64,000 nt of DNA from a virus. Taxonomy: Duplodnaviria; Caudoviricetes. The stretch lies in IMG/VR virus record IMGVR_UViG_3300031993_000015; one strand, given 5' to 3'. Every line of letters starts with the position of its first letter. Position 1 is the first letter of the stretch. Of the stretch, positions 278 to 20,068 are shown in pieces. The notes below the pieces were generated by a model, which did no database searches, had not been told where the DNA came from, and saw nothing but the letters and a program-made list of their open reading frames with translations. Both the position numbers and the translations under genes were made by a program.

Positions 278-844
278 ATGACTTACAACGAAGCAGTCGC
301 TCGTGCTCGCATGGCCTATGGCCAGATCAAAACCGCTGGCAGTTACGATGCAAACGGAAACTATCAGCTGTCCGAACTCGACAAGACCGACGTCCGTCGC
401 AAACAGTCCGAGATCGAACACGGTTCTCCGAAGACCGTTCCGCACTCCACGCCGGCTGAAAAAGCAGAACGCGCTATGGCGGTGAATGAGGCTTCCCTCA
501 ACAACCCGACTGGCGTCACCAATCAGAGCTTCCCCGGCGGCATCGAAGATGCCTACGAGGCTCTCGCTGCTGACAGACGCAGCAATGCGCTTGCCGGTAC
601 TGGTATCGGTGCTCTCGCCGGTCTCGGCGTTGGCGCTGGTGCCTACGGACTGATGGGTCTGTTCCCGTCCCTCCGCAAGCGTCGTCTTCTCCGCGCCCTC
701 ATCGCTCTCAGCGCCGGTGGTGCTGCCGGTACCGCCGCTGGTATCGCGACGGCCAGAGGTCTCAACAGTGGCAAGATTCAGGGTGCCTACGCTGACTATT
801 CCGGTCGCCTCGGCAACGCGCTCAACGCACTCAAGGGTGCCTGA
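278..844 (+). CDS. hypothetical protein with C-terminal glycine-zipper hydrophobic segments
   Basis: 188 aa ORF, SD GAGGAG upstream; GxxxG-rich segments GTGIGALAGLGVGAGAYG and AGGAAGTAAGIA. Confidence 0.8.
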   Translation: MTYNEAVARARMAYGQIKTAGSYDANGNYQLSELDKTDVRRKQSEIEHGSPKTVPHSTPAEKAERAMAVNEASLNNPTGVTNQSFPGGIEDAYEALAADRRSNALAGTGIGALAGLGVGAGAYGLMGLFPSLRKRRLLRALIALSAGGAAGTAAGIATARGLNSGKIQGAYADYSGRLGNALNALKGA

Positions 845-912: not shown

Positions 913-1911
913 ATGAACTCTCTTGAACTTCTTGCAGTCGTTGCCGCCCAGGGCATGGTCAAGACTGCTGCCCCTCTTCCCGGACGCTTCCTCGCCGGCG
1001 GCAAGTCGGCGGATGAACAGCTGACCGAAGATCTCATGAACGACTACTGGGCTCGTATGCGTGCTGGCGATGCCAATGCGCAGGCTCCCGCCGACGAGGA
1101 CACCAGCGTTGGTCGCTTCGGCCGTTCCGCTGCCGATACAGGCGTTGACCTGGCCACGATGGCCGGTGCCTACGGCGGCTGGAGAGGCGGTTCTCGTCTC
1201 GGCGACGCTATCGCAAATCGCGTCGGCGGCCGTATCACTGGTCTGGCTGACCGCGCTGGCGCTGCTATCCAGGATCGTCTTGGACGCGCTGGTACGAATC
1301 TCGAAATCGGTGCCGGTCGTGTTACCAGAGGCCTGACCAATGGCGCTGAAAGACTGGCTGGCAATCTCGAAAATGCCGGTCGCAATGTCGGTCGTCGCGC
1401 CGGCCGTGCTGCTGGTACTGTGAAGGGCAACCTCCGCGCTCTGCCTTACAAGGCTCCGCGCCTTACATCGCGCATCGGCAATGGTCTCAGACTTCCTGCC
1501 GAAGGACTCGCTCAGTTCCCGACTTTGCGCAACCGCGTCTATCCCGGACAGCTCGGAAATCCGACTGCTGTTGATGCAGTCAAGGGCTACGGCAAGCGTC
1601 TGGCTCAGGGTACCAAGGGCAACATGGCTGCTCGTGGTGCTGCTCGCGGTGCTCGTGCTGGTGCTGCTGCCGGTCGTGGCGTCACTCGTGGTGCCGGTGC
1701 TCTCGCCAATGGTGCGAACACTGCTGCCAATGCGATCTCCAGAGGCAGTGCTGCCGCTGGTCGTGGTGTTGGTCGTGGTCTGTCTGCTGCCGGTCGCGGT
1801 GCGGTCAGGGCTATCAAACCCGCTATGGGTGGTGCCGGTGCTGTTGCACTTGGTACACTGTCCAATCTGGCTGCCAACTACGCAGCGGATCGTATCTTCG
1901 GTCAGGGCTGA
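913..1911 (+). CDS. Gly/Ala/Arg-rich low-complexity protein, probable internal virion protein
   Basis: 332 aa ORF with SD GAGG; N-terminal MVKTAA motif; GA/GR-rich. Confidence 0.75.
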   Translation: MNSLELLAVVAAQGMVKTAAPLPGRFLAGGKSADEQLTEDLMNDYWARMRAGDANAQAPADEDTSVGRFGRSAADTGVDLATMAGAYGGWRGGSRLGDAIANRVGGRITGLADRAGAAIQDRLGRAGTNLEIGAGRVTRGLTNGAERLAGNLENAGRNVGRRAGRAAGTVKGNLRALPYKAPRLTSRIGNGLRLPAEGLAQFPTLRNRVYPGQLGNPTAVDAVKGYGKRLAQGTKGNMAARGAARGARAGAAAGRGVTRGAGALANGANTAANAISRGSAAAGRGVGRGLSAAGRGAVRAIKPAMGGAGAVALGTLSNLAANYAADRIFGQG

Positions 1912-1941: not shown

Positions 1942-1973
1942 AGAGGACTCCTCATTGGGGTCCTCTTTCTTTT
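1942..1973 (+). terminator. intrinsic terminator
   Basis: AGAGGACTCC-TCATT-GGGGTCCTCT stem followed by TTCTTTT. Confidence 0.75.
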
Positions 1974-2016: not shown

Positions 2017-5000
2017 ATGCCTGATGCACCTGTTTCACCGATACAAGCTGCCGGTACTGCCATGACCAATATCCGGCTCACACCGGAAAAACCGCTCAAG
2101 ACCGCAGCTGACTGGGTGCGCGATATGCGCATGTCACCCAGTGTGAACAAGACCACAACAGGTGTGGACACTGCTCAGGTGAACGGCGAGTTGATGCTCG
2201 CTACCTCAAAGCGTCTACTCGGTATTTCCAGGGGCAAGCAGGAACCAGACCCGAAGGACTCCCTGGAGTTTCAGCGGTTCTATGGCCCAGCCGAGTACTT
2301 TGCAGAACACGTGCTTCGTGACGGCAACAAACTGGGGCGCAACATCCTGTGGAAAGCAACAAACGTTGGCAACCTGGATTTCATGCCAGTCAATGCGCTG
2401 GACAAGCACATCAGTGACGTCTACTACGACAGCAAGCTCGCCCAGATGATCGACGGTTCCTCTCCACTGGAAACAGTTGATGCCTCCTACAAGACCACCC
2501 GTATCGGTGAAGGCGGCGTTGGAGACCTTGATTCAGCTCCTGACGAGATGCGCACAGTGCAGCCATCCTTCCTCGGTTTTGTAGATCCGGTCCGCAGTCC
2601 GGAGAGCTTCCGCGTCGGGTTGGATGTCTATATGACTAAGAATGTTATGAAGGGATCCGACGGAAAACTGTACCAGAAATTCATCAATGCACATACAGGC
2701 AAGGAAGAGCTGGTCGATTCCGAGACCATCGCGAAATCTGTTGTGACAACGCCTGAGATGATGCACTCCAAGACCAAATCGGTGTTCGCTATGGGCGGCC
2801 CGACTGGCGTCCGCATCGTTCCTCGCAAGGACGTTGACTACTACCTGCCCAGAGCAGATGAAGCCTACAGCATGTCTTCCAACATGGTGACGATGCCGTC
2901 TGCAGTCATCGGCATGCGACTCCTGATGGGTTGTCTGCATCCGGACACGAACGTACTGGTTGCGGATGATCACAACATGATCTCCATGAAGCCGGCCAAG
3001 TATCTGACCGCGCACAACCAACGCATCCCAGGCATGACCAGCGAGTTCAAGACCGCCTGCTACGATATGCAGAATACAATCGCCAAGCTGACACCGAAGC
3101 CGCGCTGGTTCAAGAAGATTGTCACAAAGTCCGGCCGAGTCCTCGTCACCAGTTATGACCATCGCTGGCCCGTTCTCATCAACGGCAAAATGACTCTGGT
3201 CCAGGCACGTGACTTGAAACCTGGCGATACTATCCTGCGCTCTGCTTTCCGCGATGTACCGAATCGGCGCACGTTCCTGAACAAACATCTCATCACGAAG
3301 GATGTTGCCTTCTTCCTGGGACTCCTCTGTAGATCCGCCAAGAGCAACAAGCGTGGGTCTGTCACGTTCCGCTACAAGTGTGGTGCTGACGTCAGGATTC
3401 GTGATGCCATTCATTATGTTTGGGGTGACTGCAAGCCGGTTATCCGGCAGTATAAGAAAGACGGGTTCTACTGCATGACTGTGCGCTGCGAAGCGCTTTG
3501 GCAGTTTGTCGAAGACCACATCGGTTTCACAGACAGCACCCGTGACATCCCATCCGAGATTCTCAGCACTTACGCAGAGATCGTTGCCGAGTTCCTGAAC
3601 GGGTACACTTGCGATGACACTATGATGGGTACAGACAGCAACGAGGACATCTGGATTTTGTTCATTCCGAACATGAAGGTGCGCGACGAGCTGTCCTTCC
3701 TGTTCGCCCGTATTGGTACTGACACGCTGTACCGCGATGCTCCTGGTGCAGATCCCAATCATGTCGAGATTGCACTGAAGATCAGCGACACTTCCAGGCT
3801 CTGGAACGACATGTACAAAGACACCATCAAGTACGTCTGGGAAGGCCCGCGCTGTCCTATCATGGTTGACATCGACATCAACGACAACATGTATGCAGTC
3901 GCCAACGGCATCGTGACGCACAATTCCAAGTACCCGCTGCAGGCCATTTCGCTGGAACACAGAGAGGCGCCGCTTGTGCGTACTCTTGACGAGGCCTCCG
4001 GCAAGGACATGTCAACACTGGTCGGCAAGTTCCTGGGAGCCAGGTTTGCACCACAGGGTGGCGTCGTCACGGCAGTCCGCAAGGATCGCATCGACGTCAT
4101 CTGGGACGACGGCAGCAAGGGTGCGGTTCCTCTGTATGTGAATTTCCCGATGAACGCCAAGGGCTTCATCAACAATACACCGGTCATCAAAGCCGGTATG
4201 CCATTCAAGAAAGGCGACATCCTGGCCAGTTCCAACTACACGGACAAGGACGGAACGGCTGCTCTTGGTATCAACCTGAAGTCCGGCTGGATCAGCTGGA
4301 AGGGCGGCACTTATGAAGACGCTGTTGTCATCAGCGAGGAAGCCGCCAAGAAGCTGACCAGCACGACCATGTATAACACATCGGTCGATCTGGATAAGAC
4401 CATAAGCCTGGGCAAGAAGAACTACATCACCTGGAAGCCTGCCGAGTACACAAAGGAGCAGATGGAACAGCTGGACGACAACGGTATAGTTCGACCTGGC
4501 ACTGTACTGCACAAGGGCGACCCGATGATTCTGGCTGTCCGTACATCGGAACCCAGTCCAGGTACGATGGGTAAGCGCATCCTGACAGATCTGTCCGAGA
4601 CGTGGGATCATGACCATGAAGGCATCGTGACAGATGTTGTCAAGACGCGCAAGGGTGTCAAGGTCTTTACGACTGTGACTGCTCCGGCGGAAGTCGGCGA
4701 CAAGATTGCCGGTCTGCACGGCAACAAGGGCACGATTGCTCAGATTCTGCCAAAGGAACAGATGCCGCAGACCAAGCAGGGTACCCCGCTTGATATCTGT
4801 TTCAGTCCTTTGGGAGTTACCAGCCGCAACAATACGGCGCAGCTCTATGAGGCGCTGCTCGGCAAGGTTGCGAAGAAGACCGGACAGATTCAGACTTTGC
4901 CGGCGTTCTTTGAAGGCGACTTGCATGACTATGTCGAAGGCAAGCTGAAAGAAGCGCATGTACATGCTGACGATGACCTGGTAGATCCGGAGACAGGTCG

Positions 5001-6741
5001 TGAGATCCCCGGTGTTCTTACAGGGTTCACCTATGTACACAAGCTGAAACACCTGGCGGAATCCAAGCTGTCCGCTCGTGGTACCGGCGAGTACTCTGCT
5101 GATGAAACACCCAGTGGCGGCGGTCGCACAGGCAGCAAGCGCTTTGGTTCCCTGGAAACATCGGCACTCGTTGGGCACCAGGCATTTGAGACGCTCAAGG
5201 ACGCAAAGATTCTCCGTGGTCAGTCCAACGCAGACTTCTGGCGGTCTATCAGAACAGGCTCCATTCCGACAATGCCCGGTGAGCCGCTGGTCCACAAGAA
5301 GTTCTTTGCGCACCTCATCGGCTCTGGTGTGAACGTCCGCAAGACCCAGAAGGGCATCAGCACATTTGCGCTTTCCAATGACGATGTGAATGAACTGACC
5401 GGACCCAGAGAGCTCCGTTCCAGAGATACGTATGAAGCCAAGAACTTCCGTCCAATCGACGGTGGTCTGTTCGGCCAGGACGTGTTCGGCATCAACGGTG
5501 ACAAGTGGGGCTACATCAAGCTCGACGAGCCGGTTCCGAATCCGGTCATGGAAGAGCCGCTTGCCAGACTGCTCCGTATGCCTGACAAGACTTTCACAGG
5601 AGTTGCAACCGGAAAGATTGAATACAACGGTATTCGTGGTCCTCTGCAGCTCCGCGATGCGCTTGCGAATATTGATCTGAACAAGGAAGCCAAGAACGCG
5701 CTGATCGAACTGAAGAACGCACCGACCAGCAAGAAGGATGCGATGCTGAAGCGGTATGTCGCCATCGAGCGCATGCGCCGTGCAGGTGTGAGTCCTGATA
5801 AGTACATGCTGGACAAAATTCCGGTGTTGCCTCCGCAGTTCCGTCCAATCACGTCGCACAACGGTCTGACGATGGTGGCTGACAGCAATTATCTGTATGC
5901 GCAGCTTCTGGATGCCAGAGATGACGTGCGAGAGGCCCGCGAGTTACCGGAAGAGTTCCAGCAGCAGGCTCGTGAACGTCTGTACAAGGACTGGAAGGAA
6001 CTGACCGGTCTGTATGAACCAGAAAACAAAGCCTTCAAGGCTAAACATATACAAGGGCTCCTGAAATGGGCGCTTGGCGACAGCCCGAAATTCAGCGCCG
6101 CGCAGCGAAAGGTTATCAGTTCTACTGTAGACACCGTAGGCCGTGGCGTCATTACACCGAACCCAAGACTGAAACTCAACGAAGTCGGTATTCCGGAAGA
6201 AATGGCATTCGGCATCTTCTCTCCGTTGATTGAGCGCGGTCTGGTCCAGCGTGGCTACACTCCTGTGGAAGCCATCAAGCAGGTGCATGACAAGTCTCGT
6301 CAGGCCAGGGAGCTGCTGACAGAAGTCATGAAGACACACCCTGTCATCATGAATCGTGCGCCTACGCTGCACAAGCTGAGTGTCATGGCGTTCAATCCTG
6401 TTCTTGTGACAGGTCATGCGCTTCAGATCAACCCATCCATTGTGGTGCCCTTCGGTGCAGACTTCGACGGCGACACTGTGAATATTCATGCGCCAATGTC
6501 TGACAATGCCCGTGAAGAGGCCAGACGCAGGATGTTCCCGGAGCGCAACCTGATCGCCATGAAGAACCGCCAGATAGCGTACAAGCCTGAGAAGGAATAC
6601 CTGCAGGGTATCTACACCGCGAGCCGTATTAACGACAAGTCCACGATACGCCCCCTCTTAGTTAAGGATCTGGCTGAGGCTCGTGAGGCGTATCGCAAAG
6701 GGCTCATCAACATAGACGATCCCATTGACATGCAGAGCTAA
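2017..6741 (+). CDS. rpoBC: DNA-directed RNA polymerase, fused beta (C-terminal part)-beta' (N-terminal half) subunit, intein-containing
   Basis: Beta motifs: EMRTVQPSFLGFVDPVRSPE, GDKIAGLHGNKG, PLGVTSRNN, KLKHLAESKLSAR, SKRFGSLETSAL. Beta' motifs: GGLFGQDVFG, IPVLPPQFRP, VIMNRAPTLHK, catalytic ADFDGD. Confidence 0.95.
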   Translation: MPDAPVSPIQAAGTAMTNIRLTPEKPLKTAADWVRDMRMSPSVNKTTTGVDTAQVNGELMLATSKRLLGISRGKQEPDPKDSLEFQRFYGPAEYFAEHVLRDGNKLGRNILWKATNVGNLDFMPVNALDKHISDVYYDSKLAQMIDGSSPLETVDASYKTTRIGEGGVGDLDSAPDEMRTVQPSFLGFVDPVRSPESFRVGLDVYMTKNVMKGSDGKLYQKFINAHTGKEELVDSETIAKSVVTTPEMMHSKTKSVFAMGGPTGVRIVPRKDVDYYLPRADEAYSMSSNMVTMPSAVIGMRLLMGCLHPDTNVLVADDHNMISMKPAKYLTAHNQRIPGMTSEFKTACYDMQNTIAKLTPKPRWFKKIVTKSGRVLVTSYDHRWPVLINGKMTLVQARDLKPGDTILRSAFRDVPNRRTFLNKHLITKDVAFFLGLLCRSAKSNKRGSVTFRYKCGADVRIRDAIHYVWGDCKPVIRQYKKDGFYCMTVRCEALWQFVEDHIGFTDSTRDIPSEILSTYAEIVAEFLNGYTCDDTMMGTDSNEDIWILFIPNMKVRDELSFLFARIGTDTLYRDAPGADPNHVEIALKISDTSRLWNDMYKDTIKYVWEGPRCPIMVDIDINDNMYAVANGIVTHNSKYPLQAISLEHREAPLVRTLDEASGKDMSTLVGKFLGARFAPQGGVVTAVRKDRIDVIWDDGSKGAVPLYVNFPMNAKGFINNTPVIKAGMPFKKGDILASSNYTDKDGTAALGINLKSGWISWKGGTYEDAVVISEEAAKKLTSTTMYNTSVDLDKTISLGKKNYITWKPAEYTKEQMEQLDDNGIVRPGTVLHKGDPMILAVRTSEPSPGTMGKRILTDLSETWDHDHEGIVTDVVKTRKGVKVFTTVTAPAEVGDKIAGLHGNKGTIAQILPKEQMPQTKQGTPLDICFSPLGVTSRNNTAQLYEALLGKVAKKTGQIQTLPAFFEGDLHDYVEGKLKEAHVHADDDLVDPETGREIPGVLTGFTYVHKLKHLAESKLSARGTGEYSADETPSGGGRTGSKRFGSLETSALVGHQAFETLKDAKILRGQSNADFWRSIRTGSIPTMPGEPLVHKKFFAHLIGSGVNVRKTQKGISTFALSNDDVNELTGPRELRSRDTYEAKNFRPIDGGLFGQDVFGINGDKWGYIKLDEPVPNPVMEEPLARLLRMPDKTFTGVATGKIEYNGIRGPLQLRDALANIDLNKEAKNALIELKNAPTSKKDAMLKRYVAIERMRRAGVSPDKYMLDKIPVLPPQFRPITSHNGLTMVADSNYLYAQLLDARDDVREARELPEEFQQQARERLYKDWKELTGLYEPENKAFKAKHIQGLLKWALGDSPKFSAAQRKVISSTVDTVGRGVITPNPRLKLNEVGIPEEMAFGIFSPLIERGLVQRGYTPVEAIKQVHDKSRQARELLTEVMKTHPVIMNRAPTLHKLSVMAFNPVLVTGHALQINPSIVVPFGADFDGDTVNIHAPMSDNAREEARRRMFPERNLIAMKNRQIAYKPEKEYLQGIYTASRINDKSTIRPLLVKDLAEAREAYRKGLINIDDPIDMQS
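2932..3924 (+). mobile_element. intein (331 aa) with degenerate LAGLIDADG-type homing endonuclease domain
   Basis: Starts CLHPDTNV (block A), has block B TSYDHRW, ends ANGIVTHN followed by Ser; removal restores RLLMG-SKYPLQA (equivalent to RpoB RALMGxNMQRQA); internal AFFLGLL and EFLNGY helices. Confidence 0.92.
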
Positions 6742-6777
6742 GGTAAGACAAATACCAGATTATACAAGGAGGCATAA

Positions 6778-7737
6778 ATGCCATACATTCCCTACAATCA
6801 GTTCATGCGCAAAAGCGCAGTCGCCGTTCTCACTCCGGAAGCCATGCAGGCAGCTATGCAGCCACCTCCGCAGGACCCTGGTATGATGGGCGGTCAGCCT
6901 CCGATGGATCCTTCCATGCAGGGCGGCATGATGCCTCCCGGCGGTGCGCCTCCGATGGACCCGTCCATGATGGGTGGTGCTCCCATGCCTCCGCAGGGTG
7001 CCCCGATGGATCCTTCTATGATGGGTGGGCAGCCTCCTATGGATCCCTCGATGATGGGCGGCGCTCCGGCCGGCGGTCTCCCGCCTGAAGCCATGCAGGA
7101 CCCAATGTTCATCCAGTTCCTGGCAGAGGCTATGGGCATCATGCTCGACCAGACGTCCGGCCAGTTCTTCGACCAGTCCGGCCAGCCGGTTCCTCCCGAT
7201 GTTCTGATGCAGGCATATCAATCCTACATGCAGGCCATGCAGCAGATGCAGTCCGGCGGCATGCCGATGGATCCCACCATGATGGGCGGACAGCCTCCGA
7301 TGGATCCGGCGGCAATGGGTGGTGCTCCTATGGATCCCGCCATGATGGGCGGGGCTCCTGAAGAACAACCGATGGATCCCATGATGCAGGAACTGGCCAG
7401 TCTGATGACGAACGTTGTCGGCGATGAAGTTGTCACACCGCTGAAGCAGGCCATCGAAAACATCGGCAAGCAGATGAACGACCTGAAAGAGCTCATCAAG
7501 ACCATGCGTGATGAAATGGACGTGGTCCGCGACCAAGTCGATTCTCAGGCGCATACCGATGACAAGCGCAAGCAGGAAGACAAAGACGAAGAACAGAACC
7601 TGCGCGACGAACTGGCCGCTGAACTCCAGCCGACAGTTCCGCAGGAACCTGAAGTAAAGACAGCGGCGGCTCAGCCGGCACAGCCCGCAGAGCAGTGGCG
7701 TCCTGTCAATATCATGGATGTCCTTGGGAGGAAATAA
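6778..7737 (+). CDS. Met/Pro/Gly-rich repeat protein with C-terminal coiled coil
   Basis: 319 aa, SD GGAGG; many (P)PMDPxMMGG(Q/A) units; N-terminal MRKSA motif. Confidence 0.85.
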   Translation: MPYIPYNQFMRKSAVAVLTPEAMQAAMQPPPQDPGMMGGQPPMDPSMQGGMMPPGGAPPMDPSMMGGAPMPPQGAPMDPSMMGGQPPMDPSMMGGAPAGGLPPEAMQDPMFIQFLAEAMGIMLDQTSGQFFDQSGQPVPPDVLMQAYQSYMQAMQQMQSGGMPMDPTMMGGQPPMDPAAMGGAPMDPAMMGGAPEEQPMDPMMQELASLMTNVVGDEVVTPLKQAIENIGKQMNDLKELIKTMRDEMDVVRDQVDSQAHTDDKRKQEDKDEEQNLRDELAAELQPTVPQEPEVKTAAAQPAQPAEQWRPVNIMDVLGRK

Positions 7738-7740
7738 CCC

Positions 7741-8553
7741 ATGCAAACCTACACTGAGTTCCTTATGGTGAAGAAGGCTGGCGACGAAGACGACAGCTAT
7801 CTGGCGAGTCTTGCGACACGCAAAGAAAACGGCGATGAGAAGGTGCAGGAAGCACTCAGCACAATGGCTCCTGGTGAGTTTGGCTGGGGTCTGCTCGGTG
7901 CCGGGCTTGGTGCAGGTGGCGGTTATCTTGTATCCCGCTGGCTGCGTCGTAACGGTACGAAGCGCCAGCGTGCTATGGACATGATCCTTGGTGCGCTTCT
8001 TGGCGGTGGTGGCACGATGCTTCTTATGAACACACTTCCAGGCAGTCATGGTCTTACTCAGGCGGAAATGCTCAGAGCTCGTAAACTGTACGAGAAAGAG
8101 AATCCTGGCAATAAAGACAGGGCTATGGACGATAACGGGAAGGTACCCACACCACCGGAAGAGGTCGCGGCACAACATGCACGTGAGGCAGCTGGCACAC
8201 TGATTGGTGGTTGGCTCGGTAACAAGCTGTTACCAGCTGATACGATGCTTGCCAATGTCAGACTGAAACGTGTTGCAAATAAACTTGGTGTGCCAAAGAG
8301 TGATTTTGCTGCATGGCGTAATTCCGGAACAGACGCAAAGGGACGCGGTACACAGGCACCATATATGGTGAACGGGAAAGCGGTTCCAGGCGGTCAGGAT
8401 ATTCTAAGAACCGACACTACAGCTCGTAATCTGAAGGGTGCTGGGACAGCAGCAAACTGGGTTCTCGGTGGTATCGGCGGTAACATCGTGGCTCGTAAAT
8501 ACGGTGATGACATCGGCAAGGTCTTGTCGAATTTCCTGTTCCCCGCGAAATAA
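7741..8553 (+). CDS. glycine-zipper membrane-associated hypothetical protein
   Basis: 270 aa; GLLGAGLGAGGGYL and ILGALLGGGG segments; N-terminal MVKKAG motif. Confidence 0.8.
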   Translation: MQTYTEFLMVKKAGDEDDSYLASLATRKENGDEKVQEALSTMAPGEFGWGLLGAGLGAGGGYLVSRWLRRNGTKRQRAMDMILGALLGGGGTMLLMNTLPGSHGLTQAEMLRARKLYEKENPGNKDRAMDDNGKVPTPPEEVAAQHAREAAGTLIGGWLGNKLLPADTMLANVRLKRVANKLGVPKSDFAAWRNSGTDAKGRGTQAPYMVNGKAVPGGQDILRTDTTARNLKGAGTAANWVLGGIGGNIVARKYGDDIGKVLSNFLFPAK

Positions 8554-8562
8554 GGATTGCTC

Positions 8563-10410
8563 ATGCGGACTACGCTTGGCAGAGAACTGATCCGGTCGAA
8601 ATTACCGGAGAAATTCAAAGGTTGGGCTGACAAGGTTCTTGACAAGAAGAACCTCACAGAGCTCATGACACAGATGGCCCTGGATGACCCTGACGGATAC
8701 GTCGATGTTCTCCAGGACCTGAACAATCTGGGTCAGACCGTCGTGTCCCTGTATGGCAGGAACACGGCTCTTCCTTTCGAGGACATCAAGATTTCGAAGG
8801 GTGTCAAGAGCCTGAACAGACAGCTGCATGAAGTCATTGACAAGGTTCTCAATGACGACCATCTGACCGAGAAGCAGAAGGAAGCCAAGATCACCGACCT
8901 CTGCTACAAGTACACCAAGAAGGTCGAGGACGCTGTCTTTGCAGACAATGACCGGCGCTCCACAGCGTTCGCTTCCCAGATCAATTCAGGTTCCCGTGGC
9001 AATAAGACTCAGCTGATGCAGATGCAGTTCGGCAACATGGGCATGAAAGATGCCCTGAACCGTGACATGCCCTATATGATGATCGACCCCTACGCAATCG
9101 GCGCATCACCGATGGGCTACTGGGTGTCTGCTTCATCTGGCCGCAAAGGTTACTACGACGTCCAGATGGCGACCGGCCAGTCCGGTTATCTGGGCAAGCG
9201 TGTGACTGCCGCAACACATGACACAGTCATCAGCGAAGATGACTGCGGTACCACTGACACTGGTATTCCGTTCCCTGCGAACAGCGAGAAGAACATCGGT
9301 GCAGTCCTGCTCCGTCCTTGGCATAAGTATCCGGCCGGCACAATCGTGACCGGCAAGATGGTTGGCGAGGCTGACGAAGGCGAGGAGATGGTTCTCCGCA
9401 GCCCGATCACATGTAAGAGCAGACATGGTATCTGTGCCAAGTGCAGCGGTCTTGGTGAGAATGGTAAGTTCCCCGGCATTGGTGAGTTCGTTCCTATGAA
9501 CGCAGCTCGTTCCTTTGTAGAAGTTATGACACAAAGTTCGGTCGGCAGCAAACATAAAGGGGGTGTCGGCGGCCGCAAAGTCGTTGATCCTGAAGGAGAA
9601 GACCAGCCCACCGGGTTCCGCGCTGCAGAGCGCATGTTCACTGTTCCGAAGAACTTCCCTGGGGGCGCTGTTCTGACACCTGTTGATGGCACCGTTACGA
9701 ACATCCAGGCAGCTCCGCAGGGTGGCAGCTACATCACTGTTGGTGGTTCCACGGTTTATTCTTCACCGGCCCGCACAATCAAGGTCAAGGTCGGTGACAA
9801 AGTGTATGCCGGCGACGTGCTGACCAATGGCGTACCGAATCCTGCTGACATTGTCGGCTACAAGGGTCTCGGTGAAGGCCGCCGGTATTTCACCAACAAA
9901 CTGAACACGGTTCTTAAGGATCTCGGCTGGGGTACGGACAGACGCAACATCGAGTCGTTCTCCAGAGCGTTCCTGAATAAGGTCGAAATTACAGACCCGG
10001 ATGGGTTCGGCAACTACCTACCAGGCGACATCGTTGACTACAGTGCGGTGGCTGCAGATTGGGAGCCTCGCGAGAACTCCATCACAACCAAGGCTGACAA
10101 GGCGCTGAACATGTACCTTGAAAAGCCTGTATTGTACTACAGCGTTGGAACTCGGATTACGCCCGAAGTGGCGAGCACGCTGAAGAAGTACAAATTCGAC
10201 GACGTGACGGTCTCCGATAAGGAGCCGCCATTCTCGGCGAAGTTCCTGCGTCCTACCGAGGCGCTGCAGCACAGCCAGTACTGGTTGCCCCGTATGGCGG
10301 GCGAACGGCTGCGCGACAGCCTTTTCGACGCAGCACGTCAGGGAATCACTGATCCCTATGACTCACCAAGTTATGTAGACAAAATAGTGGCACAGCCATT
10401 CAAACCATAA
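8563..10410 (+). CDS. rpoC: DNA-directed RNA polymerase beta' subunit, C-terminal half
   Basis: SGSRGN; bridge helix GRKGYYDVQMATGQSGYLGKRV; DDCGT; Zn site LRSPITC…GICAKCSG; trigger loop EVMTQSSVGSKHKGG. ATG 8563 preferred because SD TAAGGA is at 8551. Confidence 0.93.
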   Translation: MRTTLGRELIRSKLPEKFKGWADKVLDKKNLTELMTQMALDDPDGYVDVLQDLNNLGQTVVSLYGRNTALPFEDIKISKGVKSLNRQLHEVIDKVLNDDHLTEKQKEAKITDLCYKYTKKVEDAVFADNDRRSTAFASQINSGSRGNKTQLMQMQFGNMGMKDALNRDMPYMMIDPYAIGASPMGYWVSASSGRKGYYDVQMATGQSGYLGKRVTAATHDTVISEDDCGTTDTGIPFPANSEKNIGAVLLRPWHKYPAGTIVTGKMVGEADEGEEMVLRSPITCKSRHGICAKCSGLGENGKFPGIGEFVPMNAARSFVEVMTQSSVGSKHKGGVGGRKVVDPEGEDQPTGFRAAERMFTVPKNFPGGAVLTPVDGTVTNIQAAPQGGSYITVGGSTVYSSPARTIKVKVGDKVYAGDVLTNGVPNPADIVGYKGLGEGRRYFTNKLNTVLKDLGWGTDRRNIESFSRAFLNKVEITDPDGFGNYLPGDIVDYSAVAADWEPRENSITTKADKALNMYLEKPVLYYSVGTRITPEVASTLKKYKFDDVTVSDKEPPFSAKFLRPTEALQHSQYWLPRMAGERLRDSLFDAARQGITDPYDSPSYVDKIVAQPFKP

Positions 10411-10420
10411 GAGGTACAGC

Positions 10421-12613
10421 ATGAAGAGTTTGATCGTTCGCAACGGTCTGATGACCAAGAACGCCGGAGACGAGGGTCCTTCCTTCGAGCAGCAGTTCGG
10501 CATTCTCACCAATTCCATGATTGCCGAGAAGCTGCCGAGCATGGACAACATGAAGCTCGCTTTCCAGCTCATCGAGAAGTCCGACGACGATACCAAGGCG
10601 TGTGGCGCTGCTGTGTATATGATCGGCAACTCTGTCGTGTTCGTGCCGTCCTTCTTCAAGGCAAACAAGATCCAGACCGGTGACATGATGTTCGTCGCCC
10701 AGACGCAGCAGTTCCTGCCTCTGTCCGACGCATGGGTTGCGTGGCTGCGCGACAAAGACCTCTCGGATCCCGGACAGCTCGTACCTCGCGACTCCGTGGA
10801 TGATAACAGTTCTGCGAAGGCTACCACGATTCGTTCCATCGCTGACCCGATCACCAAGACGGCGGCTATGGAGCTGCCAGAAGTGAAGATGGCTCCTATC
10901 TTCCTGCGCGGTCTGCTGTACCTCGATCCTGACATGCAGAAGACGGCCTCCGACTGCGGCAGTGTTCTGAATGTTGCTCTGCACATGGGAAAGGGCGTGG
11001 CCGAGTCCATGCTGGACAATCTCATCAAGAACGCCAACTTCATGAACTCCACGCTGACGTTCTACAGCACGGACGCTGTGAACAACTTTGCCAAGGAAGC
11101 GGCTGCCATCGAAGAGCGTGAGAACACGCCGACTGTGGAACTCATCCTGCCTTTGACCAAGGAAGCCAAGACGCTCAACGCCCAGGAACTGAAGGCGCTC
11201 CATAAGGACGGCTTCTTCATCCGCAAGGTTGCCAACGTTTCTCTCGGCAAGGCTCCTGATGTGGTCCGTCAGAAGAACGTTGAAGGCATGTTCCGTACCC
11301 TGAACGCTCCCGGCAAGGCCGGACTCCTGACTATGAACGGCAACGTGACCAAGCACAAAGTCTTGGCGCTTGTCGATACCAGAGACGGCTACGATTGCTG
11401 CTGTGGCTGGGAACGTGGCGGGCATTGGGAAGCGCCGGCCGAGAACTACAAGCGGCCGCGCCAGATGATCGTCATCACCGATGGCGAGTACACGGAACTT
11501 CCGCATGATGTCATGCATAATGCCCAGGACTTCGAAGAATGGAAGCCTGAAATGGCGGAAGGAATCGGCAAGGTCATCACCAATGGCAATTTCAAGAATG
11601 TCGAGTGGCATGACATCGTTCTGGTTCCAAGTTCCGGCTGTGCATACAAGATTCCGGATCGCTGCTGCCACGAATCCAGCATCTACAGTGTTGCTGCTGA
11701 AGACTCCGGCCTGAAGGCCCCGATCATCAGCGAGGCATCTGTCGTCGTTCCGTTCGGCAGCCGCCTTATCAAGCAGAAAGGCTACAGCGAGTTCAACCAC
11801 CCGGTCTCTGTAGATGAGGTCGCCAAGAAGGAAGAAAAGAAGAGTCCGGATTCCACGACCCAGTCTCCGTATGTGACAATGGTCACGTTCGAGGTGTTCA
11901 TGGGCGAGTACCTCAAGAAGAACTACCGCAAGGCGCGTGTCTACAACAACGGTTCCGACTACGTGATCTCCGGCGACGGTGCTTCCAGTGAGCCTGTTTC
12001 CCTGAAAGAAGCCGCGCTGCACCTGGTGAAGGAATACGACATTGAGCCGGCGGTTGCCAAGATCATGCTCAAGGAAGCCAGCAACGGCGCGACTTACATG
12101 AGCCCAAAGAGCCAGACCTACTTCATCGAGAAGAAGGCCGAGGCGTTCGAGGGCGAATACAGCAACCCGGATGCCGACATCGCTTCCAACACATTCCTCA
12201 ATCAGCCTCCGCAGCTTCGACAGATGGAGATGCCGACGATCCTGGAGGATCCGGCCAATCTGGAGAAGGCTGTCGAAACGGCCGCCCAAAACGGCATCAA
12301 GGAAGTGTTCGACATCACGGCGCTCAAGATTCTTGCTCGCCAGAACCATTTCTTCGACGAGATCCACGACGATATCCCAGGCTTCATGAAGACCATCGAC
12401 AGCCTGTGCCGCAAGCTGTTCCAGTTCTACTGGCACACTGACAAGATGGAAGAGAAGTATGGTACAGTGAAAATGAAATCACTCGAAGACAGTCTCAAGT
12501 GCACACTTGACAGTCTGTCCGATCTGACCATCTTCTTCAAGCTCCGTACCGTGGACGGCACGCAGTCCACCGGTGACGTCACAGGCGAACTGATGACTGG
12601 TCAGATGCTCTAA
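10421..12613 (+). CDS. large hypothetical head-module protein with several K-x-A motifs
   Basis: 730 aa ORF, SD GAGG, strong codon bias; motifs TKNAG, TKTAA, QKTAS, AKEAA, EKKAE. Confidence 0.85.
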   Translation: MKSLIVRNGLMTKNAGDEGPSFEQQFGILTNSMIAEKLPSMDNMKLAFQLIEKSDDDTKACGAAVYMIGNSVVFVPSFFKANKIQTGDMMFVAQTQQFLPLSDAWVAWLRDKDLSDPGQLVPRDSVDDNSSAKATTIRSIADPITKTAAMELPEVKMAPIFLRGLLYLDPDMQKTASDCGSVLNVALHMGKGVAESMLDNLIKNANFMNSTLTFYSTDAVNNFAKEAAAIEERENTPTVELILPLTKEAKTLNAQELKALHKDGFFIRKVANVSLGKAPDVVRQKNVEGMFRTLNAPGKAGLLTMNGNVTKHKVLALVDTRDGYDCCCGWERGGHWEAPAENYKRPRQMIVITDGEYTELPHDVMHNAQDFEEWKPEMAEGIGKVITNGNFKNVEWHDIVLVPSSGCAYKIPDRCCHESSIYSVAAEDSGLKAPIISEASVVVPFGSRLIKQKGYSEFNHPVSVDEVAKKEEKKSPDSTTQSPYVTMVTFEVFMGEYLKKNYRKARVYNNGSDYVISGDGASSEPVSLKEAALHLVKEYDIEPAVAKIMLKEASNGATYMSPKSQTYFIEKKAEAFEGEYSNPDADIASNTFLNQPPQLRQMEMPTILEDPANLEKAVETAAQNGIKEVFDITALKILARQNHFFDEIHDDIPGFMKTIDSLCRKLFQFYWHTDKMEEKYGTVKMKSLEDSLKCTLDSLSDLTIFFKLRTVDGTQSTGDVTGELMTGQML

Positions 12614-19108: not shown

Positions 19109-20068
19109 ATGGCTTGGGATCAAATCAAAGTTGCTTCCGTTTCTGAAGACATCCGCGCAAAGTTCGCCACCGGCGACAAGGACATGTGCAAGCAGGGCAC
19201 ACTCGCTGCCAACGACTACTTCCGCACAGAAATCCGCTCCAACGGCATCCGTCGTCAGATCACTCCGCCTGTCCAGGTCACGAAGGACATGTTCGACCCG
19301 TCCGAGACCTCCGACATTCCGATCATCTACGCCGAGGTCGCTCCTCGCTCGTCCGGCGCCTACATGGTCTCCTTCGAGACTGGCCCGAAGAACGAGAACA
19401 TCTACGGCAACAAGATCCGCATCGAACTCAACCGCATCATGACCAAGAAGTACAGCATCGACAAGATCCGTCTCGATGCCTACAAGATGCCGCTGCTTGA
19501 GATCCTCGAAGACCTGCTCCTCAAAGACATCATGGATGTCGAGGACAACGTCACCATCGGTCTCGACAAGGACATCTGCGGTCCTCTGAACACGGTCAAC
19601 CCCTGGATGGGCTGCCGTCGCTATGTCACCTGCGGTGGCATCAGCCGCGAAGCTCTCGTGCACCTCAAGAAGGGCATGCCTGTGGCTCCTGGTCATCTCA
19701 TGACCAAGAAGTTCCTTATGAACGACCTCACCTACTTCGATCTCGGCGCTCTCGACCGTACCGAAGTCGGCGGCGACATGGCGCAGGAAATGTTCGTCAA
19801 CGGCGTCACCACCTCCAAGATCCAGGGCATCGACACGGTCGTCACCATCAAGACCGACCTCATCCCGACCAAGGAAGTGTTCATCTACACCGATCCGATG
19901 TACTACGGCGGCTTCTACGTCTACAACGACGTCACGATGGTCGTCGATGAAGTCGATGACATCTGGATGACCTTCTTCGCCCATGAGTGCGTCGGCGCCT
20001 CCGTGGCCAACAGCCCCGGCGTTGCCCGTGCATCCCTCACCGGCACCCTCGTCGATTGGGAAGGCTAA
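19109..20068 (+). CDS. major capsid protein (HK97-fold inferred)
   Basis: 319 aa, strongest C-ending codon bias, SD AAGGAGG, last gene before a strong terminator, in protease-scaffold-decoration-MCP order; RTEIRSNGIRRQITPP N-terminal segment. Confidence 0.75.
   Translation: MAWDQIKVASVSEDIRAKFATGDKDMCKQGTLAANDYFRTEIRSNGIRRQITPPVQVTKDMFDPSETSDIPIIYAEVAPRSSGAYMVSFETGPKNENIYGNKIRIELNRIMTKKYSIDKIRLDAYKMPLLEILEDLLLKDIMDVEDNVTIGLDKDICGPLNTVNPWMGCRRYVTCGGISREALVHLKKGMPVAPGHLMTKKFLMNDLTYFDLGALDRTEVGGDMAQEMFVNGVTTSKIQGIDTVVTIKTDLIPTKEVFIYTDPMYYGGFYVYNDVTMVVDEVDDIWMTFFAHECVGASVANSPGVARASLTGTLVDWEG

Follow-up and report, generated by a model that had tools for sequence, protein, structure and literature searches.

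The 64,000-nucleotide (nt) stretch analysed here (the window), taken from the Caudoviricetes record IMGVR_UViG_3300031993_000015, encodes a multisubunit RNA polymerase (RNAP) in which both catalytic double-psi beta-barrels lie on a single polypeptide. The β subunit's C-terminal part is joined to the N-terminal part of β′, and the front of β (β-N) and the remainder of β′ (β′-C) are encoded by genes of their own. The window corresponds to positions 9226-73225, minus strand, of a 178,489-bp record, a single contig with a CheckV completeness of 100%. We consider it very likely that this is the phage's own and only RNAP, a stripped-down bacterial-type enzyme of three chains, β-N, β(430-end)::β′(~15-550) and β′-C, whose fusion chain is predicted to be spliced and which is probably packaged and delivered for early transcription. 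Its genes and their parts are the following (lengths in amino acids, aa; window coordinates unless stated otherwise):

2017-6741, plus strand: β-C::β′-N fusion precursor, 1574 aa, 175 kDa, open frame throughout
2017-2109, plus strand: N-terminal leader of the fusion chain, ending in LKTAA (aa 27-31, nt 2095-2109)
2248-2931, plus strand: N-extein, β part, from the fork domain (Rpb2_3) to R-L-L-M-G; E. coli β 430-682
2932-3924, plus strand: intein, 331 aa (aa 306-636), HINT with an inner LAGLIDADG endonuclease domain
3925-5343, plus strand: C-extein, β part, from the β double-psi beta-barrel to the β C-terminal motif; E. coli β 683-1337
5344-6741, plus strand: β′ N part, joined head to tail; E. 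coli β′ ~15 to ~550
8563-10410, plus strand: β′-C, 615 aa, 67.5 kDa, Pfam Rpb1_5
73687-74409 of the whole record, minus strand: β-N, ~240 aa, 461 nt upstream of the window start
134685-135614 of the whole record (L010:1273-2202), plus strand: sigma-70 gene with regions 2 and 3 and a weak region 4, the sole sigma-70 family gene

The original prediction, made from the sequence of the window, had read the open reading frame (ORF) at 2017 as running without a stop from β into β′ past the ADFDGD motif, with both catalytic barrels on one chain. Both statements hold: the frame is open, four Pfam domains lie on the chain, and its segments and motifs map onto the E. coli subunits. The domains are Rpb2_3 (aa ~144-207) and Rpb2_6 (716-1028, E 9e-56) from β, and Rpb1_1 (1246-1309) and Rpb1_2 (1425-1504, E 6e-27) from β′. 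When the chain was compared with solved structures by phmmer, aa 640-1148 matched bacterial β chains only and aa 1200-1570 bacterial β′ chains only, with E-values of 1e-44 to 3e-54; the identity to any bacterial β or β′ is ~26-30%. After removal of the 331-aa insert the chain aligns to residues 430-940 and 1048-1337 of E. coli β (1342 residues), and the lineage-specific E. coli insert at 940-1048 is absent. The motif DPKDSLEFQR occupies aa 78-87, the β lysine motif GDKIAGLHGNKG at aa 894-905 aligns with E. coli GDKMAGRHGNKG, SPLGVTSRNN at aa 930-939 aligns with the E. coli NPLGVPSRMN motif, and the β C-terminal motif HLIGSGVNVRK lies at nt 5311-5343. Only ~34 residues past this last β motif follows FRPIDGGLF of β′ (E. 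coli 49-57), so that the two subunits are joined head to tail essentially without a linker. Residues 175-544 of β′ (E. coli numbering) can be aligned behind it, including NRAPTLHKL and a GADFDGD with all three aspartates of ADFDGD (aa 1480-1486, nt 6454-6474). A sequence check found LKTAA, DPKDSLEFQR, HLIGSGVNVRK and ADFDGD at the places where the original prediction had quoted them. The zinc ribbon of β′ (E. coli C70, C72, C85 and C88) is cleanly deleted here, in Salmonella phage Arash and in the relative P0022, and throughout the family as aligned. After splicing, the chain is predicted to have 1243 aa and 137 kDa and would hold one Cys. The RNAP is very probably functional.

The second half of β′ was found as a separate gene, as had been proposed, with exactly two ORFs (6778-7737 and 7741-8553) between it and the fusion gene. 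It contains the bridge helix (nt 9139-9201) and the trigger loop with its His (nt 9523-9564) and aligns to E. coli β′ 651-947 and 1176-1285, skipping the SI3 insert. ATG 8563, the position given in the original prediction, is a more likely start than TTG 8557 in view of an AAGGA 8 nt ahead of it. At the other end of the enzyme, the orthologues of Arash and of Vibrio phage D69 have ~230 additional N-terminal residues compared with the fusion chain. A tblastn search with the N-terminus of Arash gp206 located this missing part at positions 73741-74262 of the record (E 6e-20), ~2.3 kb upstream of the fusion gene, in an ORF that most likely starts at its eighth codon. The β-N protein aligns weakly to E. 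coli β 118-228; its AlphaFold2 (AF2) model has a predicted local distance difference test score (pLDDT) of 83.5, the top 50 Foldseek matches are all RNAP β, and the best of them is to the B1-B2 domains of M. tuberculosis β (4kbj). Three genes separate β-N from the fusion gene, two of them in the window (278-844 and 913-1911). A relative with 86% identity has the same β-N split and four different genes in the gap, and a locus search with the β-N protein alone returned a single close IMG/VR relative.

The window had been described as lacking β-N and α. Over the whole genome the picture is that β-N lies just outside the window and α nowhere in the 178 kb: the profiles for α and ω (PF01000, PF01193, PF01192) gave no match in the record at E-values up to 10, and the same profiles were positive in 14/14 control genomes. 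A second β or β′ was sought in the whole genome by tblastn and Pfam and none was found. The profile for T7-type single-subunit RNAP (PF00940) had no match in the genome, with controls that were uninformative for this profile.

On the reading that we favour, the fusion would be made as a 175-kDa precursor in which the intein interrupts the β active-site fold, and folding of the enzyme would require that the intein first splices itself out, which leaves the 137-kDa product. The covalent link between β and β′ would take over the scaffold role of the α dimer, and promoters would be recognized by the phage sigma-70 factor encoded elsewhere in the genome. The head would take up the enzyme, the leader would be removed behind LKTAA, and the enzyme would probably be delivered along with the DNA for transcription of the early genes; newly made enzyme would serve later transcription. 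This use of sigma is weakened by the distance of ~60 kb between the sigma-70 gene and the RNAP genes and by the generic character of this sigma-70 relative, which could redirect the host RNAP instead. As to the link itself, Helicobacter and Wolbachia have natural RpoB-RpoC fusions, and a tethered β/β′ of E. coli has been engineered; in all of them the β C-terminus is joined directly to the β′ N-terminus, which shows such a link to be compatible with activity. All of them combine two full-length subunits and still use α2 and ω, whereas here β′ is cut after the first barrel (~550), β-N is separate, α and ω are absent and the genes belong to a phage head module.

The evidence for packaging comes from gene position, leader motifs and the Arash relative. 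Nearly all genes across the first 60 kb of the window are on its plus strand. A 627-aa ORF homologous to the Arash portal protein gp204 lies ~9 kb upstream of the window, and a capsid-like gene follows downstream of the RNAP genes (19109-20068, window coordinates), so the RNAP genes, with leader-bearing genes around them, are part of a portal-to-capsid block. One small gene separates the portal gene from the fusion gene behind it in Arash and D69. The motif [LIVMF]KTA[AG] is found in four adjacent genes, the fusion gene among them, each time in the N-terminal 40 aa, where chance would give 0.075 occurrences (P ~1e-6); the KTA(A/G) sites fall at residues 11-31 (nt 2095-2109, 958-972, 326-340 and, on the minus strand, L009:4303-4317). 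We infer that the LKTAA leader is a candidate head-protease cleavage site or capsid-targeting signal, and a TAADWVR motif is kept in those relatives that share the β-N split. In virion mass spectrometry of Arash, gp206, the orthologue of the fusion chain, gave the most spectra, more than the major capsid protein, and gp216 and the sigma factor gp10 were likewise detected (PMC10585845). Virion packaging of the RNAP is plausible because of these Arash proteomics, the portal-capsid position and the KTA(A/G) leaders on four neighbouring genes.

Three observations weigh on the other side: neither Arash nor D69 conserves the LKTAA leader, the Arash virion list comprises 116 proteins including ribonucleotide reductase, and carry-over could, according to its authors, explain the abundance in the Arash virion preparation (PMC10585845). 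The enzyme might be a functional phage RNAP that stays out of the virion, made only in the infected cell as are the non-virion RNAPs of phiKZ and AR9, with its place in the head block reflecting late co-expression or gene-order history. The clear metabolic enzymes among the Arash ‘virion’ proteins are in keeping with this, as is the separation of the fusion gene from the upstream leader-bearing genes by a terminator-like hairpin and a ribosome-binding site of its own:

1942-1966, plus strand: terminator-like hairpin with a 10-bp stem and a T tract; the gap that it occupies ahead of the fusion gene measures 105 nt

The strong ribosome-binding site, AAGAGGAG, lies between this hairpin and the ATG at 2017. 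We nevertheless regard an unpackaged enzyme as unlikely, if a serious contender: it is the sole RNAP of the genome, gp206 outnumbers even the major capsid protein in spectra from Arash virions, the RNAP genes adjoin or just follow the portal gene in three distant relatives, and the N-terminal KTAA motif is common to neighbouring genes. Packaging into the head is the more probable course, given the portal-to-capsid position, the leader-bearing neighbours and the rank of the Arash orthologues among the most abundant virion proteins. The intergenic sequence before the fusion gene was also used to seek a promoter-like repeat, with a single occurrence as the result, and a scan for the sigma-70 consensus found fewer sites than in shuffled sequence. 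In Arash, gp217 (L001:19479-20897), encoded after β′-C, is an SNF2-family helicase found in virions; tblastn detected no homologue of it in the genome studied here.

The 331-aa block in the β part, which the original prediction had not noted, became visible when the chain was aligned with its orthologues from Arash and D69, both of which are without it. It splits the sequence R-L-L-M-G / S-K-Y-P-L-Q-A, which corresponds to the E. coli β motif R-A-L-M-G-A-N-M-Q-R-Q-A-V-P. The residues expected for splicing are in place, with Cys1, a block B of the form S74-x-x-H77, a terminal H330-N331 and Ser637 at +1, and 15 aligned inserts at this site all have C1, H77, H330 and N331. The protein Atlas placed the insert, at 0.95, beside LAGLIDADG_3 and intein clusters. 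Searches of solved structures with the intein sequence alone gave a chance match only. The AF2 model of the insert (pLDDT 93.1, predicted template modelling score, pTM, 0.91) was matched by Foldseek to the archaeal Thermococcus litoralis VMA (TliVMA) intein (7qsu; template modelling score, TM, 0.82, E 4e-18), followed by PhoVMA, PI-PfuI and PI-SceI, and by I-DmoI on the inner domain. We consider the identity settled because the fold search matched where the sequence searches were weak: by its model, the insert at aa 306-636 is an intein with canonical splice residues and a HINT/LAGLIDADG fold. TliVMA, PI-PfuI and PI-SceI share its two-domain fold and its canonical splice residues, and known HINT/LAGLIDADG inteins are likewise inserted at a highly conserved active-site motif of their host protein; in contrast to the solved inteins, the host protein here is a phage β::β′ fusion, and the sequence identity is just 10-16%. 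Inteins in RNAPs are known from archaea and eukaryotic viruses (PMC1635734). Splicing would convert the precursor of 175 kDa to the chain of 137 kDa.

Two features of the insert tell against an active element. Pfam Intein_splicing scores it at E 4e-4, under the Pfam threshold, and the first LAGLIDADG-like motif (intein aa 127-136) appears to have Ser in place of the usual catalytic Asp; the second motif (aa 220-229) keeps its acidic residue. Homing activity may accordingly have been lost. One could go further and suppose that the insert is decayed or does not splice at all and inactivates the β chain, which would leave a pseudogene or a polymerase in need of another partner; the weak Pfam score and the degenerate look of the first motif would fit. 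We hold this to be improbable: Cys1, SxxH, HN and Ser+1 are all present and invariant in the aligned same-site inserts, the model is very confident and shows a complete HINT fold, the extein frame is intact and the catalytic motifs are conserved. Furthermore, the site is occupied by an insert in 127/264 relatives and a 98%-identical relative has one more insert, which is the pattern of active inteins.

The fusion is widespread. A HMMER search of 1.8 billion representatives (clusters at 50% identity) returned at least 150 representatives, all with E < 1e-195 and nearly all spanning both halves of the query, and a word-indexed search returned 875 clusters at 90% identity (E < 1e-50) on contigs of up to 205 kb. 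Among cultured phages, only Salmonella phage Arash and the Vibrio phages D69, D148 and D181 carry it. The same continuous β/β′ frame recurs in these four cultured phage genomes and in over 250 of the sampled homologues, which come from separate assemblies. β-N is a separate protein in 128 of the 264 sampled relatives and fused to the same chain in 115 of the 264, and in most of the distant relatives it is on the fusion chain. The fusion layout is hence the norm of a very large phage family and not a singular event, and the three-piece, intein-bearing form described here is a variant of it. That fusion and split are artefacts of mis-assembly, of a frameshift or of a chimera with host rpoB-rpoC can be dismissed as extremely improbable, although the record is a metagenome assembly and many phage-collection entries hold host rpoB/rpoC contamination, since separate assemblies and cultured phages share the frame, bacterial β and β′ are as distant as given above, and the genes lie between portal and capsid in a record rated complete. 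The low identity and the portal/capsid context also bear out the earlier view that this is a phage RNAP and not a host rpoBC operon.

Inserts are common throughout the family: 238 of the 264 sampled homologues carry one to five, of 125-570 aa. They cluster around positions ~190-200 of the fusion protein (P0001), 305 (the intein site of this phage), 900, 940, 1040-1050, 1360 and 1480-1510, at ETPEG-like, RxLMG, HGNKG, NPLGV, GEME-like and ADFDGD motifs. In P0161, whose exteins are 98% identical to those of the phage studied here, an extra insert of ~367 aa sits at the RSPES motif (compare window positions 2590-2625), without a counterpart here; the two constitute an intein presence/absence polymorphism between near-identical phages. 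In Vibrio phages D181 and D148, a segment with a homing-endonuclease gene breaks up the fusion gene within 7 codons of the intein site of the present phage. In D181 this interruption measures ~950 bp (L008:3856-4804) and falls between ...NMVPFFNS and MAGKALPQ..., D69 is without it, and it is probably a group I intron.

The closest described enzymes are those of Arash (gp206, 1525 aa, and gp216, 606 aa; OQ632216; PMC10585845) and of D69, D148 and D181, which have a homologous β::β′-N fusion and a separate β′-C. Identity to the Arash and Vibrio fusion chains is 31-32% over 93-96% of the post-intein part, and 27% for β′-C. These phages, too, have no zinc ribbon, encode the RNAP after the portal and carry a sigma gene in the genome. 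They differ in having β-N on the same chain, whereas in the present phage three leader-bearing genes separate the β-N gene from the fusion gene; moreover, Arash and D69 lack the intein and the Arash and Vibrio phages lack the LKTAA leader, both of which are present here. The Arash paper and records call gp206 only ‘subunit beta’ and do not describe the fusion (PMC10585845). Our literature searches found no published description of a β::β′-N phage fusion, and reviews of phage multisubunit RNAPs and a paper on RNAP-encoding Caudovirales make no mention of one.

The RNAPs of phiKZ/AR9-type jumbo phages (PMC7598289, PMC7824862) resemble the present enzyme in having two barrels, no α or ω, and β and β′ in pieces; their β′-N stops a little beyond the ADFDGD barrel, close to where it stops in the present phage. 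These phages encode two paralogous sets, of which one is packaged in virions (PMC7598289, PMC7824862), and both a sigma-70 homologue and a fusion are absent, compared with one set and a sigma-70 gene here; a 2020 review describes RNAP-encoding jumbo phages as lacking sigma homologues (PMC7598289). In tblastn searches, phiKZ-type sequences scored 50-115 bits versus ~330 for bacteria. Both barrels on one virion-delivered chain are also found in gp66 of the crAss-like phage phi14:2 and in Thermus phage P23-45, there as a tape-measure fusion (PMC10770324). The homology of RNAPs of this type to β/β′ is hard to see by sequence (PMC7481178), whereas the enzyme studied here matches bacterial subunits at E 1e-45 to 1e-54.

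For a phylogeny we used the N-terminal barrel region of β′ (27 sequences, 376 columns, LG+C20 with posterior mean site frequencies, PMSF). The fusion family is monophyletic (98/99), and its nearest clade (83/87) consists of other phage enzymes, from Rhizobium phage TM30, Vibrio phages 1.031.O and Va2, IME392 and RP13. It adjoins the nine sampled bacteria and does not fall within them, and a very long branch (100/100) sets the phiKZ-like sequences apart. The tree is thinly sampled, contains long branches and has no archaeal or eukaryotic outgroup; for lack of such a root, ‘inside Bacteria’ and ‘sister to Bacteria’ cannot be separated in this tree. For these reasons we keep the reading narrow: the sequences suggest no recent capture from any sampled phylum and a divergence much smaller than that of the phiKZ type. 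The original prediction's description of the enzyme as bacterial-like, with phiKZ-like RNAPs far more divergent, agrees with the tree, the tblastn scores and the matches to structure chains. Its proposal of a separate acquisition was not borne out; the family forms a clade of its own outside the sampled bacteria and beside another phage RNAP clade. The idea of re-cut subunit boundaries fails for the cut in β′: the fusion chain and the β′-N chains of IME392, RP13, Eowyn, ChrisDB and AgentSmith have their ends no more than ~35 positions apart, which makes this cut a common phage boundary.

What is known of multisubunit RNAPs in phages comes mainly from jumbo phages of the phiKZ/AR9 type, with very divergent enzymes, two sets and no sigma factor. 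The fusion family stands apart in being recognizably bacterial, in coming with a sigma-70 gene, in having both barrels on one chain and in being very common in metagenomes. It is conceivable, and we propose it tentatively, that it represents a third kind of virion-delivered phage RNAP, minimal, bacterial-type and α-free, with a covalent β/β′ link in place of the α scaffold, a phage sigma-70 factor and cleavable leaders for loading into the capsid, and ejected with the DNA. If so, these phages of ~180-200 kb would not depend on the host for transcription even in the first minute, and the catalytic motifs of the enzyme would be among the densest targets of inteins and homing endonucleases known. 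A packaged and active enzyme would provide a natural, compact, α-free bacterial-type polymerase for structural and mechanistic work on how such an enzyme assembles and uses sigma, a new way to early transcription without the host and, at up to five inteins per gene at active-site motifs, a natural experiment on the intein load of an essential enzyme.

The genes around and between the RNAP genes are:

278-844, plus strand: P0008, 188 aa, between the β-N and fusion genes, with IKTAG at aa 17-21
913-1911, plus strand: P0009, 332 aa, rich in Gly, Ala and Arg, with a leader containing VKTAA (aa 16-20)
6778-7737, plus strand: P0003, 319 aa, between the two RNAP genes, not a part of the RNAP
7741-8553, plus strand: P0004, 270 aa, with the leader MQTYTEF (nt 7741-7761), not a part of the RNAP

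P0008, which had no match in Pfam or PHROG, is a probable head-internal or ejected protein. An ORF at 1481-2014 (177 aa) that abuts the start of the fusion gene was rejected as a shadow frame: its translation is hydrophobic and of low complexity, and it overlaps the real gene 913-1911 out of frame. The 730-aa gene after β′-C (10421-12613) had no match in Pfam, PHROGs or the Atlas, and a megablast of the region against phage records gave no match. P0003 consists mostly of PMDP(S/A)MMGG-type repeats (Pro/Met/Gly/Gln), followed by a charged coiled-coil tail, and has a VKTAA near its C-terminus. P0004 and the gene after β-N (L009:2667-2687, minus strand) share the start MQTY(T/A)EF, and this leader resembles the capsid-targeting sequence of phage T4 internal proteins.

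Members of the fusion family also turned up on contigs of up to 199 kb that had been binned into species-representative metagenome-assembled genomes (MAGs) labelled as Lentisphaera, Nanopelagicales, Thermoguttaceae, Alphaproteobacteria and even Thermoplasmata. Mis-binning of phage contigs into cellular genomes is the likely cause, and such rpoB/rpoC-like genes in bacterial and archaeal MAGs could mislead marker-gene phylogenies. Conversely, several GenBank ‘phage’ records, for example Staphylococcus phage SA 1298 Kay and Listeria phage LM 4-14-1, are host rpoB-rpoC DNA, with ~29-30% identity to the fusion protein.

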